DNA from: a virus
Length of the DNA: 40,865 nucleotides
UHGV virus genome: UHGV-0180691
Reading direction: 5' to 3' (one strand)
Shown here in pieces: positions 2,948 through 13,982 of this stretch; the first letter of the stretch is position 1, and each line of letters starts with the position of its first letter. Under the pieces are notes generated by a model. The model did no database searches and was not told the origin of the DNA. It saw only the letters and a list, made by a program, of their open reading frames with translations. The position numbers and the translations under genes are program-made.

Positions 2948-3141
2948 TGGACGGACTCCTGACGAAGATGGTTAATTTCGGCGTCAAGGCTCATTCGCTG
3001 GTCCATCGATTCCGTCAAGGCGGCAAATGTAACGTCCAAGCGAGTGGCTACCTCACGCATCAGAGAGGCTTCTGCTGGTGGCAGTTTCCCCGCCGCAGCA
3101 TGGGCTGCGGCTACCAGTTCTTTTATCTTCATGCGTGGCAT
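2944..3141 (-). CDS. hypothetical small early protein
   Basis: 65 aa ORF with overlapping start/stop to neighbours on the same strand. Confidence 0.35.
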   Translation of the reverse strand: MPRMKIKELVAAAHAAAGKLPPAEASLMREVATRLDVTFAALTESMDQRMSLDAEINHLRQESVQ

Positions 3142-3803: not shown

Positions 3804-4634
3804 TTACGCTTTAAAGTTACCGATAAAGGTTTCAACCGGCTTGTCGGTGAACTTCTCTATCAGCAGGTCACGGAACTCGTTGGCGATAGCTTCTTCCTGG
3901 GCTTCCAGTTGAACGATGCGGAGTACAAACACCGGTTCCCCGCTTTTAAGCAGGCTGTTACGCAGGCTAAAGCGGCGTTCGCCTAGGCCTTCATATGGCA
4001 CGCATTTGAACTCGAAGGCGACAGGCATCACGTCTTTACTGCTGGCTTCAACGCTCTGCATCAGGGACTTTCTGCCGCCAAAATCTTCGTCTTCATGAGC
4101 TGCTTCCGAGACTTGTTTGATATTGACGCGACGAACGGCACCAGCTGCCTGCGCGATGGACAACACATTCCCGTCGGCATCAAATGCGCTCAGGAAGTCG
4201 GCCCAGTCCTCCAGCCATTCAGCAATTTCCTTCTGGCCCAGTCGATCGCCATTTACCTGAAGTAGGGCTCGGAATGGCGCTGTCTTTTTGAGGGTGATAG
4301 ATGCGACGTTATCAGCATGGCCAGGGTTAGCCAGAGTACCGATATTGAACACGGAGCGTGCGGTCATGTTGTCAGCATCGATAAAGCATCGCGCTGGTTC
4401 AGCTTCGTTGGCATAGCCAGCTGCATAACGCACAAAGTCAGGAATGCTGGTTGTGGTCATGGCACCGCGAAAACGAAAACGCTCCAGATCGAAACGCTCA
4501 AGGCTTTCTACGTTTACGCCATCAGGGAGCAGGGCAGTAGGGCATGCTGTTTCTTTAACTGCAGTAAGGTGATAACCGGAAAGAACAAGGTCTTTCACCT
4601 GCTGCAGGGCATTGCCGTCTAAAATCTGGGACAT
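3804..4634 (-). CDS. conserved phage early protein, YfdQ-like (DUF2303-type), function unknown
   Basis: 276 aa; size and position between YfdR-like and YfdP-like ORFs; assignment from memory of prophage CPS-53 gene order, not searched. Confidence 0.5.
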   Translation of the reverse strand: MSQILDGNALQQVKDLVLSGYHLTAVKETACPTALLPDGVNVESLERFDLERFRFRGAMTTTSIPDFVRYAAGYANEAEPARCFIDADNMTARSVFNIGTLANPGHADNVASITLKKTAPFRALLQVNGDRLGQKEIAEWLEDWADFLSAFDADGNVLSIAQAAGAVRRVNIKQVSEAAHEDEDFGGRKSLMQSVEASSKDVMPVAFEFKCVPYEGLGERRFSLRNSLLKSGEPVFVLRIVQLEAQEEAIANEFRDLLIEKFTDKPVETFIGNFKA

Positions 4635-4687: not shown

Positions 4688-5059
4688 TCACTGTGCCGCT
4701 TTAAGCTTTCCGTCAACGCCGCCGTTGATCCCGAACAGCTGCCCCTGATCTTCCTGCAGGATGGTCAGCTTGCCGCCTTTGTTAACCCACATTGGTGTTT
4801 CGGTGGTGTCTTCTTCGGAGGCTTTACCGCGCGGGGTTGGGGTGACGTAGTTCAGCTTGTGCTTGATCTTGACGCGCTTCTCTTCGACGGAGTTACCCAT
4901 ACGCTCAATATCAAAGGTGAGGACTACTTTGCCTTTGGTACCGTTGTTCAGAACGCCAAGCGCGGTAGTGTTTAAAGCTGCCGCGATCTTGTTCATGAAC
5001 ACGCCGGCATCCAGTTCGCCCAGGAAATCGGGCACTACGGTCATGCGGTCATTACTCAT
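4688..5059 (-). CDS. conserved phage early protein, YfdP-like, function unknown
   Basis: 123 aa; position and size consistent with yfdP of CPS-53-like early regions. Confidence 0.45.
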   Translation of the reverse strand: MSNDRMTVVPDFLGELDAGVFMNKIAAALNTTALGVLNNGTKGKVVLTFDIERMGNSVEEKRVKIKHKLNYVTPTPRGKASEEDTTETPMWVNKGGKLTILQEDQGQLFGINGGVDGKLKAAQ

Positions 5060-5268
5060 GGTTTAACCCTCTGTGAGGCGGCTGCCACCGCCAGTGGAAC
5101 TTCTCCATACACAACAGAAAAGGGCACCTGCGCTTCGGCTATGGGTAGGAGGTCCATTTCCATAGCGCCCGGGTGGATTGGGGAATGAGCCCGTCGCCCG
5201 GTGATGCCCTTGTCTCTTGTGTAAAAAAGGTGCCCACCGATGTGATGGGCAAAGACTACACACAGCAA
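5056..5268 (-). CDS. hypothetical small ORF upstream of YfdP-like gene (doubtful)
   Basis: 70 aa; ATGA overlap with downstream gene start but TTG start and overlaps another ORF in a different frame. Confidence 0.2.
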   Translation of the reverse strand: MLCVVFAHHIGGHLFYTRDKGITGRRAHSPIHPGAMEMDLLPIAEAQVPFSVVYGEVPLAVAAASQRVKP

Positions 5269-5684
5269 TGATTTTGTTGTGGCGGTGGTGCCTCCACCTG
5301 CCGGACCGGCCAGAACCGGCGACGCTACACCTCAAGAAACGTATTCATTTCAAAAGTTGAAATAAAAACTTGTTGGCCTCGTCACGTGCGCAGAGCCGCA
5401 TTACCACAACTGGAAGCGCACTCTTTCGGTAACAAACCTGCCCCCGCAGTGAAAGAGAGAAGGAGTGCGCTTTCACGTTGTGCCCTTAAAAAGCTGGCTG
5501 TCACCCTCAAGGGGAAAGTGAGCAGCCAGAACAGGGATCACTTCTTATTGCTTTGGCCTGCTTTTAACCACATCAGGCGCGGTGGTAAGTCATTTGCGAA
5601 TCATCCGGTCATTCATACGCCACCGGCGGCTACTTCGTGGGCTTCCTGCCTGTTCGCTGTTGATGAAAATGAAGATAAAAGATA

Positions 5685-5725
5685 TTTGCGAAATGCGCAA
5701 GAAATAAAATGCGTAAAACGCAATT
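5685..5725. promoter_or_regulatory. putative left operator/promoter (OL/PL) region
   Basis: Motifs TTTGCGAAATGCGCAAG (5685-5701) and ATGCGTAAAACGCAATT (5709-5725) closely match motifs in the cI-cro intergenic region (15 of 17 identical to 6542-6558). Confidence 0.45.
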
Positions 5726-5733
5726 GAAAGGGC

Positions 5734-5766
5734 GTAAAAAAACCGCCGTGTAGGCGGTTATTTGTT
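5734..5766 (-). terminator. rho-independent terminator downstream of repressor gene (possibly bidirectional)
   Basis: Stem AACCGCC / GGCGGTT with 6-nt loop (5741-5760); 7 A on plus strand upstream gives a U-run on the minus-strand transcript. Confidence 0.7.
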
Positions 5767-5777
5767 CTTAGGGGATG

Positions 5778-6473
5778 TTATCCGTGCCGTTTAACTGACT
5801 GCGACTGGCTGATCATTACCTTGCCGAAAACGTAAAATCTGTCTTCATTGGACTTATCCACTGACCACTCCCGATATTTAGGGTTATCGGAAATGACAAG
5901 AATTTTATCTGGGATCATCTGTAATCTTTTGACGTAAATTTTATCATCAAAACCAAAGACATAAATCCCATCACCATCAAACTCATTAATCGAAATATCA
6001 ACGAATATCAAATCACCTGGTTCAATGGTATCAGCCATGCTGTCACCACGAACGTTAATCACTTTGACCGTATCTGGTGTTCTCCCACCAAATAATGCGG
6101 CGGCTCTTTCGTTGTTGTACTCAATGGACCTGATGACATCGACGACATCACTACCTTGTATATGGCCCATGCCAGCACTGGCGCTGACATCGAGCAACTC
6201 GACTCTAAACACAGGGTCACCCTCTCCATAAGCTGGATTTTTACCACTGGATTTACATACAGTATTTTCATTTGGAGATGGTGTAAAGAGTTCTGCCACG
6301 CTGACACCAAGTGCCGTAGCATATTTGCTAAGCGATTGTTCAGTAAATGACTTTTGTTTTCCAGTCTCAACCCGTGAGACGTTCGCACCGTCAATACCTA
6401 CAGCTTCAGCAAGATCTGAAATTTTCATGCCCTTTTCGAGGCGTAATTCTCTAATGCGGTTTCCTATGTTCAT
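5778..6473 (-). CDS. cI: CI-like prophage repressor (N-terminal HTH, C-terminal LexA/S24-like autopeptidase domain)
   Basis: 231 aa; N-terminal HTH (IRELRLEKGMKISDLAEAVGIDGANVSRVETG); C-terminal domain with GDSM and VKRL context typical of S24 Ser/Lys dyad; divergent from cro-like gene. Confidence 0.9.
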   Translation of the reverse strand: MNIGNRIRELRLEKGMKISDLAEAVGIDGANVSRVETGKQKSFTEQSLSKYATALGVSVAELFTPSPNENTVCKSSGKNPAYGEGDPVFRVELLDVSASAGMGHIQGSDVVDVIRSIEYNNERAAALFGGRTPDTVKVINVRGDSMADTIEPGDLIFVDISINEFDGDGIYVFGFDDKIYVKRLQMIPDKILVISDNPKYREWSVDKSNEDRFYVFGKVMISQSQSVKRHG

Positions 6474-6484
6474 GCGTCCATTAC

Positions 6485-6566
6485 AGGTTGTTTTTGCGTG
6501 ATATGCAAAGCAACTTGCGCAAGTCGTAACTACACATTAATATGCGTAATGCGCAATTACAGGGGG
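6485..6566. promoter_or_regulatory. putative right operator region (OR) with divergent PRM/PR promoters
   Basis: Repeated operator-like motifs TTTGCGTGATATGCAAAG (6493-6510), CTTGCGCAAG (6514-6523) and ATGCGTAATGCGCAATT (6542-6558) between divergent cI and cro. Confidence 0.55.
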
Positions 6567-6570
6567 TATT

Positions 6571-6834
6571 ATGCAATCACCGTTAAGAAATTTGCGAAAA
6601 TCGCAAGGTTTGACTCTCTCTCATGTGGCAAACGTGGTGGACATTGATCCAGCCAACCTAAGCCGAATTGAAAGGGGTCAACAAATCGCATCACTCGATG
6701 TAGCTGAAAGGCTTGTGAAGTTTTATTCGGGCCAAATTGATGAGCTCCAAATCTTGTACCCGCACCGTTATACGCAGGCTACAGAAACTGGGGAAGCAAC
6801 GGTACCACAGGAAAAAGGGGAAAGCCGTGGGTAA
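6571..6834 (+). CDS. cro: Cro-like HTH transcriptional regulator
   Basis: 87 aa; HTH (LRKSQGLTLSHVANVVDIDPANLSRIERG); divergent from cI; RBS AGGGGG upstream. Confidence 0.8.
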   Translation: MQSPLRNLRKSQGLTLSHVANVVDIDPANLSRIERGQQIASLDVAERLVKFYSGQIDELQILYPHRYTQATETGEATVPQEKGESRG

Positions 6835-7375
6835 CGAACCGGAATGGAAAGTTGATAAGCAGCCAGCCTGGCTGGTGGCCGCAATCAAAAAAACAATCAC
6901 CGAACTGCCGGGCGGATATTCAGAAGCTGCTGAGTGGTTGGGTGTGACCGAGAACGCGCTGTTTAACCGGCTGCGTACCGATGGTGATCAGATCTTCCCG
7001 CTCGGTTGGGCGATGGTGCTTCAGCGTGCTGGTGGTTCAAACCACATCGCGAACGCTATTGCACGTCACTCGAACGGTGTTTTTGTGCCATTGGCTGATG
7101 TTGAAGAGATTGAGAACGGCGATATCAACCAGCGTCTCATGGAGTCAGTTGAGTGGATCGGCAGGCATTCGCAATACGTTCGTAAAGCTACCGCTGACGG
7201 CGTTATTGATGCTCAGGAACGCGCCCAGATCGAAGAGAACAGCTATCAGGTGATGGCTAAGTGGCAGGAACATTTGACGCTGCTTTTCCGTGTGTTTTGC
7301 GCGCCGGAAAAGAGTGACGCCCGCGAGTGTGCAGCTCCGGGCGTCGTGGCAGACAAATCTTGTATGGAGAAGTAA
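6827..7375 (+). CDS. putative CII-like/YdaT-like early regulatory protein
   Basis: Start moved to GTG at 6827 (RBS GGGGAAAG upstream; overlaps cro stop); position immediately after cro; family assignment tentative. Confidence 0.4.
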   Translation: MGNEPEWKVDKQPAWLVAAIKKTITELPGGYSEAAEWLGVTENALFNRLRTDGDQIFPLGWAMVLQRAGGSNHIANAIARHSNGVFVPLADVEEIENGDINQRLMESVEWIGRHSQYVRKATADGVIDAQERAQIEENSYQVMAKWQEHLTLLFRVFCAPEKSDARECAAPGVVADKSCMEK

Positions 7376-9455: not shown

Positions 9456-11385
9456 AATCATCGTTGATAACTTTGCCGGTGGTGGCGGCGCGAGTACCGG
9501 CATTGAACTGGCCATCGGGCGTAGCGTGGATATCGCTATCAACCACGACGAAAACGCTATTGCGATGCATAAGACGAATCACCCAGACACGCTGCATTAT
9601 TGCGAGTCGGTGTTTGACGTTGACCCAAGCGCAGCCACCAGCGGTAAACCTGTCGGCCTGGCCTGGTTTAGCCCTGACTGCCGCCACTTTTCCAAAGCGA
9701 AGGGCGCTAAGCCAGTTAAGAAAGAGATTCGCGGGCTGGCGTGGATTGTTCTGCGCTGGGCGCTGGCAGTACGTCCCCGAGTCATGATGCTGGAGAACGT
9801 CGAAGAATTTAAGACATGGGGCCCGCTGCTGGATGAAGAATTACGCCCGGATCCTGAGCGTGCTGGTGAAACATTCGAGGCATTTGTCGGCATGCTGTCG
9901 ACTGGTATCGCTGCGAATCACCCAGCACTGGCTGAGGTTTGCGAATTTCTTGCCATTGAGCCGCACGGCAAGCAGGCGCAACAGCTGATCGCCGGGCTTG
10001 GCTATGAGGTCGATTATCGTGAACTGCGCGCTTGTGACTATGGCGCGCCGACGATCAGAAAGCGTTTCTTCATGGTCATGCGTTGTGACGGCCGCAAGAT
10101 TCATTGGCCTGAAGCGACTCATGGGGATCCAAAATCACTGGAAGTACAAAGCGGCAAGCTGGCGCCATGGCGTACCGCGGCGGAGTGCATTGACTGGAAT
10201 ATCCCGGCCCGGTCCATCTTCGACCGCAAAAAGCCGCTGGCGGAAAATACGCTCAAACGTATCGCGCGCGGCATCCAGCGTTTCGTTATCGAGAGTGCTT
10301 CGCCGTTTATCGTTAAGTGCAACCACACCACGTCACACGGCAAATATGATTGTTTCCGTGGGCAGGAGCTCGAGGCTCCATTACAAACCATCACGAAAAC
10401 CCACGGCTATGCGCTGGCGGTACCGCATCTTACTAAATTCCGCACCGGGGCCACCGGGCAGCCAGTGACCGAGCCGGTTCCAACTGTCACCGCTGGTACG
10501 TCGGCGCGCCCGGGCGGGAATGGACATGCGCTTGGCGTAGTTGAGGCCGCCCTGACACCGTTCCTGGCTGGCAATGGCGGCAGTGAGTACCAGGCAAAGC
10601 CGCGCCCGCTGGATAAACCCGCTCATACAATCCTCAAGCAGTCCCACGCGTGCGTGGTTGCGCCGGTCATCGCCCGCCAGTTTGGCGCCAGTGTTGGGCA
10701 CAGGGCTGACGAACCGAGCGCGACGATTACTGCAGGTGGTGGCGGTAAGTCGCAGCTGGTAACTCCAACATTGATCCAGATGGGGTACGGCGAACGCCCA
10801 GGACAAGAACCGCGTGTTCTTCAACTGAATAACCCGCTCGGCACGGTCACTGCTGGTGGTAATAAGTTTGCAACGGTGAGCGCGTTCCTGGCGAAGCACT
10901 ATGGTGGGAATTACACGGGGCCGGGTGTTGGTATGGATGAGCCTGCCCATTCAGTCACTACTGTTGATCATCACGCGGTAGTTGCGTCGCACCTGGTGAA
11001 GCTGCGCGGAACCTGCCGCGACGGTCAGACCATGGATACACCTATGCCGACGATTACCGCTGGTGGCCAGCATGTTGGCGAGGTCCGGACATTCCTCGAA
11101 ACATACTGCGGTGATAGCGAGGATGAATGGCTGGTGACGATCGAGGGGGTTAAGTACCAGATCGTCGATATCGGAATGCGCATGCTGCAACCGCATGAGC
11201 TTTATAAGGCGCAGGGCTTCCCTGACGGCTACGTTATCGATCAGGACTATCGCGGCAATCGTTACGCCAAAGACAAGCAGGTAGCGCGCTGCGGTAACGC
11301 AGTACCGCCGCCGTTCGCTCGTGCTCTGGTAGAAGCAAATCTTCCTGAATTATGTGCAAATCAAAAGGCGGGTGCAGCCGCCTGA
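9448..11385 (+). CDS. DNA cytosine-5 methyltransferase with extended repeat-containing variable region
   Basis: Start at ATG 9448 (MREIIVDNFAGGGGASTG = motif I); SPDCRHFS (catalytic Cys motif IV), MLENVEEF (ENV motif VI), C-terminal LQGFP and GNAVPPPFARAL (motifs IX/X); about 360-aa region between motifs VIII and IX with repeated T(V/I)TAGG modules. Confidence 0.85.
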   Translation: MREIIVDNFAGGGGASTGIELAIGRSVDIAINHDENAIAMHKTNHPDTLHYCESVFDVDPSAATSGKPVGLAWFSPDCRHFSKAKGAKPVKKEIRGLAWIVLRWALAVRPRVMMLENVEEFKTWGPLLDEELRPDPERAGETFEAFVGMLSTGIAANHPALAEVCEFLAIEPHGKQAQQLIAGLGYEVDYRELRACDYGAPTIRKRFFMVMRCDGRKIHWPEATHGDPKSLEVQSGKLAPWRTAAECIDWNIPARSIFDRKKPLAENTLKRIARGIQRFVIESASPFIVKCNHTTSHGKYDCFRGQELEAPLQTITKTHGYALAVPHLTKFRTGATGQPVTEPVPTVTAGTSARPGGNGHALGVVEAALTPFLAGNGGSEYQAKPRPLDKPAHTILKQSHACVVAPVIARQFGASVGHRADEPSATITAGGGGKSQLVTPTLIQMGYGERPGQEPRVLQLNNPLGTVTAGGNKFATVSAFLAKHYGGNYTGPGVGMDEPAHSVTTVDHHAVVASHLVKLRGTCRDGQTMDTPMPTITAGGQHVGEVRTFLETYCGDSEDEWLVTIEGVKYQIVDIGMRMLQPHELYKAQGFPDGYVIDQDYRGNRYAKDKQVARCGNAVPPPFARALVEANLPELCANQKAGAAA

Positions 11386-11399
11386 TATGGAGAAATAGC

Positions 11400-12092
11400 A
11401 TGAATCAGTTAACCGCAAAGGGTGTTGTGACAATGTCCAGCCGTGAAATTGCCAGGCTGGTGCAGAGCAAACATGGTGATGTGAAGCGCTCAGCTGAGCG
11501 CCTTGCATCTGCTGGTATTTTAACCGCGCCGTTGGCGCACACCCCCTACACACACCCGCAAAACGGGCAAACCTACGAGGAGTATTGGTTCAACAAACGT
11601 GATTCTCTGGTGATCGTCGCCAGGCTGTCGCCAGAATTTACCGCCGCTGTTGTCGATCGCTGGCAAGAGCTGGAGAACAGCCAGGCCGTAAGTGTCCCGC
11701 AAACATTGCCGGAGGCATTACGTCTCGCCGCGGATCTGGCCGAGCAGAAAGAACAACTCAGCCAGCAGTTAGCCGCTGCCGCGCCGAAAATTGAGTTTGT
11801 CGATCGGTATTGTACTGCCAAAGGCTCAATGTCTTTCCGCCAGGTGGCAAAGCTGTTGCAGGCCAAAGAGACCGATTTCCGCTTGTTCCTCATTGAGAGC
11901 GACATTATGTACCGGCTCGGCGGAGTGCTGACACCGCGGCACCAGCACATTGCTGCCGGGCGGTTTGAAGTGAAAACTGGCACCACGAGCGAAACAAACT
12001 ACGCCTTTAGCCAGGCACGTTTTACACCCAAAGGCATCGAGTGGATCGGCGGCCTGTGGACGGCACACATCGCTAAGGGGCATGCCGCGTGA
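11400..12092 (+). CDS. Rha/antirepressor family protein (N-terminal Rha-like, C-terminal Ant-like domain)
   Basis: ATG at 11400 with GGAG upstream; N-terminal MSSREIARLVQSKHGDVKR pattern typical of Rha family; assignment from memory. Confidence 0.6.
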   Translation: MNQLTAKGVVTMSSREIARLVQSKHGDVKRSAERLASAGILTAPLAHTPYTHPQNGQTYEEYWFNKRDSLVIVARLSPEFTAAVVDRWQELENSQAVSVPQTLPEALRLAADLAEQKEQLSQQLAAAAPKIEFVDRYCTAKGSMSFRQVAKLLQAKETDFRLFLIESDIMYRLGGVLTPRHQHIAAGRFEVKTGTTSETNYAFSQARFTPKGIEWIGGLWTAHIAKGHAA

Positions 12093-13150: not shown

Positions 13151-13171
13151 TTGTATGGAGCGCTGAGCATA

Positions 13172-13864
13172 ATGAATTTACAAGAACTGGAATATACGCG
13201 GATTGAACTGCGCCGCGCGCTGGCGGATTTATCAGGATCGACAAAAGGACAGCTGCAGGCGTTCAGTGAGCATCCACCAGCAGATAAGAATAAATACCCT
13301 CGGCACCATCCTGAAATCGTCATGGAGGGTGGGGAAGGTTGTGGATCGAAGGTTGTAAAAACTCTGGCCACTCCGCTTTATGTTCTTGAGACAAGGAGCC
13401 GTCGCCGACCTTTACCGCCTATTAAGGATACGGAGTTCGCTTGTTCAGCATGGCGTCGATCGGTCAATGGTCTGGGGGCGCATTTGCAGGCATGGGTGCG
13501 GTACTGCTATGGGCATGACCTTGCTTTCCGGTACCAGAGGTTAATGTGCCAGCACGTATGGGAAGAGTTTCAGCGTCAGCATAGCGGCAAAAAAATCCAA
13601 GACCGTGTCACTAAAAAACTGGTAGGGCTTGTCTGGCTGGCGGCGCAAGAAGTTGCTGCCTCGCGTAATAACGATACCTATCAGGAGTATGCTGGAGCAG
13701 CTCTGGCGCGCATGGTCAGCGTTGAGCGTTCCACCTGGCTCAGAGTGTATTCAGGCCACTGGGCAGCTTTCAAAGCGTCGTTTTCGGAGATGGACAGCCA
13801 GGCACTAAGCGAAATTTTGACACGGTACGAAGAGTACCAAGAACTGAAAGTGGCGGAAATGTGA
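13172..13864 (+). CDS. putative late-gene antiterminator (Q-like)
   Basis: ATG at 13172 with GGAG upstream; immediately upstream of a strong intrinsic terminator and the lysis cassette, the canonical Q position; sequence family not verified. Confidence 0.5.
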   Translation: MNLQELEYTRIELRRALADLSGSTKGQLQAFSEHPPADKNKYPRHHPEIVMEGGEGCGSKVVKTLATPLYVLETRSRRRPLPPIKDTEFACSAWRRSVNGLGAHLQAWVRYCYGHDLAFRYQRLMCQHVWEEFQRQHSGKKIQDRVTKKLVGLVWLAAQEVAASRNNDTYQEYAGAALARMVSVERSTWLRVYSGHWAAFKASFSEMDSQALSEILTRYEEYQELKVAEM

Positions 13865-13957
13865 GGTAACTTTCACTAACTCCCTCAATTAGGCTTGCAA
13901 AATGCAACAAAATAAGCGATATTTGAAGCTAATTTGATATATTGCCAAAAGTTTATA

Positions 13958-13982
13958 AACCCGCCAGCGAGCGGGTTTTTTA
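13958..13982 (+). terminator. rho-independent terminator (tR'-like) downstream of Q-like gene
   Basis: Stem CCCGC / GCGGG with loop CAGCGA followed by T6. Confidence 0.7.

Follow-up and report, generated by a model that had tools for sequence, protein, structure and literature searches.

Our analyses suggest, with a probability of roughly 0.55 for the reading as a whole, that the early-left (PL) leader of the virus genome UHGV-0180691 acts like the dicBF leader of Qin: transcripts stopping at the intrinsic terminator T2 would yield a small RNA (sRNA), and read-through followed by processing would yield the early-left mRNA. The host element would be an N-less, Q-containing lambdoid prophage, with positions 5336-5684 of the window (the whole 40,865-nucleotide stretch of DNA that we analyzed) forming the first half of the leader. 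Lambdoid phages usually carry N downstream of PL, and HK022 uses structured put RNAs instead; the original prediction took 5336-5684 for an ORF-poor leader that might hold a small ORF or an RNA antitermination element. What it overlooked is that most of the leader resembles an sRNA-and-processing region of the DicF/STnc100 type whose seed is RprA-like. From sequence comparisons, the leader appears to be a mosaic of RNA modules common to the N-less lambdoid phages SfV, ST64B, mEp460, e14, LLS, and Flotzy, and DicF-type prophage sRNA modules appear to carry exchangeable seeds, one of which copies processed RprA.

The minus strand of the window encodes, in this order, int (720-1883), xis, an exonuclease, an HD hydrolase (yfdR-like), yfdQ (3804-4634), and a yfdP-like gene (4688-5059), the last of which matched phrog_204 at 1e-41. 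Between the yfdP-like start (5059) and the stop of the CI-type repressor gene (5778-6473; HTH and S24 peptidase domains) lies a complete intergenic gap of 5060-5777, which is exceptional, because neighboring left-operon genes otherwise lie -4 to +135 nt apart. A bidirectional intrinsic terminator (5741-5759), detected on both strands by the terminator scan, closely follows the cI stop codon (5780-5778). The cro gene (6571-6834) and a CII-like gene (6830-7375) are oriented opposite to the early-left genes, and the sole antiterminator gene found in the window is Q-like (13151-13864). It is followed by a strong intrinsic terminator (13957-13978), to which nothing comparable was detected by the terminator scan on the plus strand from cro to Q. 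The window also encodes an Ant-like anti-repressor (11352-12092).

As predicted, 5336-5684 contains no minus-strand ORF of at least 60 aa; the ORF list holds only four overlapping minus-strand ORFs of 36-43 aa (5345-5476, 5382-5510, 5590-5700, and 5613-5723). The leader length of ~350 nt, in contrast, was an underestimate, and ORF 5063-5335 (TTG start, 90 aa) was mistaken for the first early-left gene. This ORF has no family hit, spans the intrinsic terminator at 5251-5231, and crosses RNA helices whose length varies among relatives by non-multiples of three; we therefore place the untranslated leader at ~605 nt (~5664 to 5060). A Pfam and PHROGs scan of all ORFs in 5060-5777 returned zero family matches, and neither the gap ORFs nor the tested small ORFs of the left and right operons gave N-type hits, so the predicted lack of an N-like gene held. 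An Rfam scan of the window yielded nothing at or above a gathering score, the sole meaningful sub-threshold match being RprA.

Upstream of the leader, a pattern search run with 0 and with 1 mismatch identified two TTGCG-N5-CGCAA operators (OL; 5686-5700 and 5709-5723). Of the seven window matches to this motif with at most one mismatch, six lie on either side of cI: a pair at 5686-5723 and another four at OR (6494-6606). The putative PL (5672-5700, minus strand), read from the sequence, comprises a -35 hexamer TTGCGC (5700-5695), a 17-nt spacer, and a -10 hexamer TATCTT (5677-5672); the -35 hexamer is identical to that of PR (TTGCGC-N17-TAATAT). In relatives with other immunity regions, the homology begins a few bases past a -10 hexamer, which ends 13-14 nt ahead of a conserved GCGAAC. 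The operator pairs, the PR-like -35, and this homology start support the original placement of OL and PL, and we infer a PL transcript start at ~5664.

The leader was compared across two samples of relatives, namely 120 viral contigs in which a block-B pattern occurs and an independent set of 65 genomic loci picked by YfdP homology only, ranging from Enterobacter to Proteus and Yersinia. Escherichia phage Flotzy matches the leader at 97% identity and phage LLS at 96% over 5060-5586, and parts of the leader recur in SfV, SfII, ST64B, and mEp460. Among 5426 complete E. coli genomes, 2804 have matches to two leader segments of ~65 nt, the E. coli K-12 prophage e14 being one such case, and blocks A and B together match in about half of the complete E. 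coli genomes. Module order and strand are constant across ~190 loci. The structure prediction and covariance check proposed for this region turned out positive, in that the predicted fold of the leader is better than that of shuffles (5665-5222, z = -2.2; 5230-5060, z = -4.6) and its modules covary across relatives. In e14 (minus strand 2567-1480 of the K-12-derived genome), block A, block F, and the STnc100-like domain are present, together with an RprA-like seed with a DicF-type terminator and a post-terminator helix. The right operon of SfV, ST64B, and a related contig (L002 5407-5595, L003 5185-5373, L088 3501-3689) carries isrK and C4 antisense RNA above the Rfam gathering scores, neither of which had an Rfam match in the window. 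We also considered svsR, an sRNA of prophage NC-SV, as a counterpart of the leader; it sits inside the cI 3' end and is a different element.

The putative sRNA module is DicF-type (5223-5269, minus strand), identified by Rfam, sequence identity, and the terminator scan; it consists of the seed AUUGCUGUGUGUAGUCUUU, the T2 stem (5251-5231), and, after two intervening bases, a U-tract (5228-5223). Positions 5269-5244 are identical at 26 of 26 nt to nt 60-85 of K-12 RprA, with nt 60 being the start of the processed form. The Rfam RprA model scored 42.3 bits (E = 0.0026; gathering score 70) in the window, its alignment being poor upstream of the seed, where there is no similarity. Processed RprA is 47 nt long and active alone (PMC9262595).

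Of 192 related loci, 83 contain the seed pattern TGCTGTGTG[TA]AGT[CT], followed by a DicF-type stem in 57, an RprA-type stem in 16, and other stems in the rest. The seed is thus conserved independently of the terminator, because it precedes three or more different terminator stems. In the 57 DicF-type loci (SfV type), the 5' half of the stem, UGGCGGUAYCAGUUU, is nearly that of DicF, and the Rfam DicF model scored 15.7-28.5 bits (gathering score 48) at homologous positions in relatives; it had no match in the window, whose homology to both DicF and STnc100 is a transitive alignment through SfV-type relatives. Many DicF-type terminator loops from Citrobacter to Proteus (L135, L164, L182, and others) contain a conserved insert, CUUCAACC..ACACCAGGAGG.GCGAAGAUAAUGUUCU, with a Shine-Dalgarno-like AGGAGG and then AUG UUC and a stop; the window does not have it. 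Four related loci (L139, L140, L142, L145) are missing exactly the seed, the terminator, and the P1-P2-P3 structure described below, with ..CCACAAC.. joined directly to ..GUGUAUGGAGA. The similarity in sequence between the seed and the P1 3' strand suggests that this segment is a cassette gained or lost by recombination.

An RNAduplex scan for seed targets inside the phage found the trivial antisense site only. PasA to PasD have no sequence in common with the RprA-like seed, and a prophage origin of the rprA locus was set aside, YdiL having no PHROG match. The literature that we searched contained nothing on an RprA-like prophage sRNA, nor on sRNAs near ymfH/ymfJ.

Directly behind the U-tract of T2, comparative folds predicted a three-way structure (5109-5222, minus strand; z = -4.6, as above). 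Its P1 helix of ~20 bp, which covaries among relatives, pairs 5222-5200 with 5128-5109 and encloses P2 (5201-5168) and the variable hairpin P3 (5168-5130). Single-sequence folding predicted the P1-P3 fold for ~40 divergent sequences from Enterobacter to Proteus with unrelated P1 sequences. The P2 hairpin loop, GGG-CUCAUUC-CCC (5192-5180), resembles an initiator tRNA anticodon. In most relatives, the P2 hairpin is CGGGCUCAUAACCC, which is identical at 14 of 14 positions to the anticodon arm of the initiator tRNA metZ, with three G:C pairs and a CAU anticodon; this metZ-like arm was found in 28 of the 65 YfdP-chosen loci. The hairpin could serve as a decoy for VapC-type nucleases or as an operator recognized by MetRS or by the 30S subunit, or it could simply be a relic. 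Between P1 and the yfdP-like gene, alignments showed GGAGAA, a covarying hairpin (5092-5077), a Shine-Dalgarno sequence GAGGG (5071-5067), and the yfdP-like ATG (5059-5057), together spanning 5057-5106 on the minus strand.

Upstream of the seed, conserved blocks in the alignment delimit an STnc100/PasD-like domain (5276-5410, minus strand), closed by GUUGUGG (5410-5404) with CCACAAC (5282-5276) and holding the hairpin GGUGG-AGGCA-CCACC (5298-5284). The stem of the AGGCA hairpin covaries (CCGGG/CCCGG and CCUGG/CCAGG), including in SfV and Qin. At the homologous position, the Rfam STnc100 model scored 39.5 bits in SfV, 35.1 in ST64B, and 29.2 in e14 (gathering score 47), and in the window it fell below the reporting threshold and gave no match. 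Both STnc100 and PasD are prophage sRNAs, and PasD was recovered in an Hfq RIL-seq study. In two Phytobacter prophages (L179 1186-1264, L181 2222-2300), a tRNA-Ile(aat) gene replaces the domain ~20 nt before the seed; the domain of the window is tRNA-like in position only, with ARAGORN finding no tRNA in the window.

The strand GUUGUGG (5410-5404) has an alternative partner in an upstream CACAAC, with which RNAfold formed a long hairpin, H2 (5404-5482, minus strand; CACAAC..AAGCGCACUC / GAGUGCGCUU..GUUGUGG), whose 3' arm overlaps block C. Leaders of the SfV type have a counterpart of H2 with another pairing sequence, AAGGAU/AUCCUU. Preceding H2 is T1 (5488-5529, minus strand), a terminator-like element in which CUUUUU comes after an 11-bp hairpin containing a single bulge (RNAfold, -21.5 kcal/mol), which is kept in Flotzy, LR881940, and ST64B; our consensus terminator scan missed it, because its loop is longer than 8 nt. 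Further upstream, block F (5556-5586, minus strand), ACCAC-cgc-GCCUG-au-GUGGU-uaaaag-CAGGC, occurs in 49 sequence variants across genera. A comparison of these variants revealed some compensatory changes (GCCUG/CAGGC to GCCGG/CCGGC, and ACCAC/GUGGU to UCCAC/GUGGA), from which we infer a putative H-type pseudoknot.

In the dicBF-like reading, loss of the CI-type repressor would allow RNA polymerase to start at ~5664 and to transcribe, in order, block A, block F, T1, the STnc100/PasD-like domain, the single-stranded seed, and T2. Transcripts stopping at T2 would be non-coding RNA. Trimming of their 5' end, which RNase E performs in DicF, would leave an sRNA of ~47 nt fit for Hfq binding, with the processed-RprA seed and its stem; the expected processed species of ~47-60 nt would carry AUUGCUGUGUGUAGUC. 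Upon read-through of T2, the long P1 helix would fold just behind the U-tract and would probably be cut by RNase III, as behind DicF, freeing the yfdP-yfdQ-...-xis-int mRNA. The 5' end of DicF is made by RNase E, and its 3' end arises by intrinsic termination (53 nt) or by RNase III acting on the read-through mRNA (72 nt) (PMC5069750). An Hfq-dependent sRNA from an early-left operon has a precedent in PreS of lambda. What we observed directly comprises the gap, the operators, the terminators, the identity with RprA, modules that are conserved and covary, and an arrangement of structures that parallels Qin; the start of transcription, the efficiency of termination, processing by RNases E and III, Hfq binding, and the targets are deduced from them. 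Several points count against the dicBF-like reading: the window stays under the RprA gathering score and has no DicF or STnc100 match, the two bases separating the T2 stem from its U-tract put the strength of T2 in doubt, P2 and P3 inside P1 are unlike Qin's domain at that place, and blocks A and F, although the best conserved of the 5' modules, play no part in the model.

Block A (5593-5662, minus strand), an RNA element of 70 nt located 5'-terminally in the predicted PL transcript, was defined with a covariance model and by covariation. It folds into three helices, namely (i) a closing helix GCGAA/UUCGC, (ii) a hairpin GGC-AGGAC-GCC, and (iii) a hairpin CCGGU-12 nt-ACCGG, with invariant joining strands and with single-stranded segments of 13 nt and 12 nt that are near-invariant across genera. 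In our first alignment, the closing helix and hairpin covary, with 92.6% of cells paired and a covariation score of 0.240, whereas shuffles gave 0.084 and sliding the partners gave no more than 0.075; the covariation of the hairpin recurs in the independent sample. The covariance model matched the window once (93 bits), the next best match (11.7 bits, E = 0.49) yielding no second, putR-like copy in the window, and it found one copy in e14 (77 bits). Block A has no Rfam match, and we found no description of it in the literature searched. BLAST matches to block A also include the Providencia phages PR1 and PSTCR5 (H128-H130; 86-88% identity over 73% of its length), and in PR1 the match lies inside an annotated repeat_region at two places in the record. 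These genomes (110-118 kb) appear T5-like by size, with block A apparently located in their terminal repeats.

The strongest rival reading concerns this element, and we regard it as a real possibility, albeit one short of even odds: block A may be a cis-acting RNA that modifies polymerase, in the manner of HK022 put or of an rrn-type Nus complex, and that replaces N-nutL in carrying transcription past T1, T2, and Rho. Several observations argue for it. Across 85 leaders, block A stands behind ~33 unrelated types of promoter and operator, within a few nt of the deduced transcript start; in most of them, GCGAAC lies 13-14 nt past the end of a good sigma-70 promoter, and in the window the -10 ends at 5672 and block A begins at 5662. 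In the independent sample, 33 of the 65 loci contain block A, each as a single copy oriented like PL, and BLAST found it in 54 phage records. Its structure covaries around invariant joining strands, and both the early terminators and block A are confined to the left operon. In phages with a HK022-type PL, either putL or block A is found at the same junction. Moreover, the annotated carriers SfV, mEp237, and SPN3UB have no gene labelled N after PL; in the latter two, block A lies ahead of kil and recE modules, again with no gene annotated N. Finally, in 20 of 75 leaders with block A, a hairpin at +79 is followed by a near-perfect rrn-type boxA, GCUCUUUAACAA, and the authors of the LLS study also guessed at a put-like mechanism (PMC12315714).

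In L023, L028, L043, L057, L075, and other leaders, the hairpin and then GCUCUUUAACAAUCUGG follow 79 nt past the block A motif; this sequence is close to the rrn boxA, UGCUCUUUAACAA.

Against this reading, the window itself contains no boxA (neither GCTCTT[TA]A nor CTCTTTAAC occurs anywhere in it). Block A is missing from close relatives that share T1 and T2 with the window, namely the LR881940 prophage and, as far as the matches reach, LLS and L132, and conversely some carriers have no T2 (L139, L140, L145). Its predicted fold is unlike the two stem-loops of put, and homology to put was rejected on two grounds: the block A covariance model finds neither putL nor putR of HK022, and the 21 phage records that BLAST matched with putL include no member of the SfV/ST64B group, put-like elements beyond HK022 being judged from the phage annotations in these matches. 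Moreover, read-through of the dicBF terminator takes place with no antiterminator known to act there (PMC5069750). Of the originally suggested RNA antitermination element, what stands is a structured 70-nt RNA at the putL position, with T1 and T2 ahead to be overcome; its kinship with put and a copy at putR do not. An antiterminating block A is compatible with the dicBF-like reading of the remaining leader, and the element is plausibly the leading candidate for helping polymerase past T1 and T2. More tentatively still, block A may represent a new class of promoter-proximal RNA acting on polymerase, unrelated to put, for which cooperation with Nus factors is possible in leaders with boxA.

It is also conceivable, but rather unlikely, that block A is a 5'-terminal stabilizer or folding platform, which protects the transcript from RNase E and RppH or binds a protein and leaves termination unaffected. 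The closing helix is predicted to sequester the transcript 5' end, and block A also occurs directly ahead of ORFs, such as SfV orf33, and without a downstream T2. However, a simple hairpin would suffice for such a role, whereas the near-invariant 13-nt and 12-nt segments indicate specific recognition.

We consider it improbable that PL lies elsewhere, or that the modules are separate genes with promoters of their own (for example, an independent RprA-like sRNA) rather than parts of a single leader. The poor match of PL to the sigma-70 consensus (~7 of 12 positions) and two clusters of relatives with no obvious promoter ahead of block A would favor it, but the minus strand has no promoter-like site from 5660 to 5060, and both the poor RprA alignment upstream of the seed and the fixed module order and strand speak against separate genes.

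Least probable is a small N-like or other regulatory protein concealed in the leader: although the only candidate from a short-ORF search for an arginine-rich motif, the 36-aa ORF 5590-5700, ends arginine-rich (RSSRRWRMNDRMIRK), and the conserved GGAUGAUUCG contains a micro-ORF AUG-AUU-CGN-stop, the TTG start of the former lies inside the -35/OL1 and upstream of the deduced transcript start, its in-frame ATG is ACG in many relatives, which also show 1-nt and 11-nt indels, the micro-ORFs are likewise not conserved, the substitutions in block A are compensatory for RNA helices, and the leader ORFs have no Pfam or PHROGs family hits, leaving no conserved small ORF of the kind once suggested here.

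These findings provide a precise 70-nt candidate with a testable structure for how N-less phages (SfV, ST64B, e14, LLS, and others) might transcribe the early-left operon past terminators and Rho in a 600-nt leader, and block A is present in E. coli K-12 itself. Should it be an antiterminator, it would be a second solution beside put for N-less lambdoid phages, far commoner than put. The copy of processed RprA suggests that phages interfere with part of the Rcs/RpoS-linked RprA regulon, or that this part arose from them. For annotation, hypothetical proteins called in this gap overlap conserved RNA structure: three in the homologous leader of Flotzy (2515-2709, 2786-2917, and 2986-3141) are probably not genes, and the annotated ymfH CDS of e14 likewise overlaps leader RNA modules.

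Among known systems, lambda N-nutL and rrn boxA are alike in the position of block A directly after PL and in the hairpin and boxA that follow it in a quarter of the related leaders, whereas the window differs from lambda in containing no N gene, boxA, or boxB. The put elements of HK022 share with block A a length of ~70 nt beginning at the PL transcript start, a setting with N absent and terminators downstream, the short strings CGAAC(N)GGC and GGAUGA, and, in phages with a HK022-type PL, their position. The put elements themselves are characterized by terminator read-through that needs no other factor and depends on the beta-prime zinc-binding domain. In contrast to put, block A has a closing helix and two hairpins instead of two stem-loops, has no copy in the right operon, and is commoner (54 phage records compared with 21 for putL), extending to e14 of E. 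coli K-12. The STnc100 (RF02076)/PasD family differs from the window domain, which is internal to the leader, has another seed behind it, and scores below the reporting threshold; the two share the closing helix, UGGUGAAUGCGG, and the hairpin CCNGG-AGGCA-CCNGG. RprA (RF00034) shares 26 identical nt from nt 1 of its processed form, behind which come a GC-rich terminator and then a U-tract. The window copy, however, has no similarity to the RprA 5' half (which contains the known rpoS-pairing region), scores 42 bits compared with a gathering score of 70, lies in a prophage rather than at the ydiK-ydiL locus, and gives no sign of a promoter of its own.

The closest parallel is DicF in the dicBF operon of Qin (RF00039). 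The window departs from it in its seed, which is RprA-like and not complementary to ftsZ, in its RprA-type terminator stem, and in the interior of its helix (P2, P3), and it has no DicF match. Nevertheless, both are repressor-controlled early-left operons of lambdoid prophages, in which a short seed and then an intrinsic terminator sit inside a polycistronic leader; SfV-type relatives have the 5' half of the DicF terminator, and STnc100-like domains occur in Qin as well, on both sides of dicF. Further, Qin has a helix of ~28 bp that runs from the DicF U-tract to just before the dicB Shine-Dalgarno sequence and contains an RNase III site, at the very place where P1 would form behind T2.
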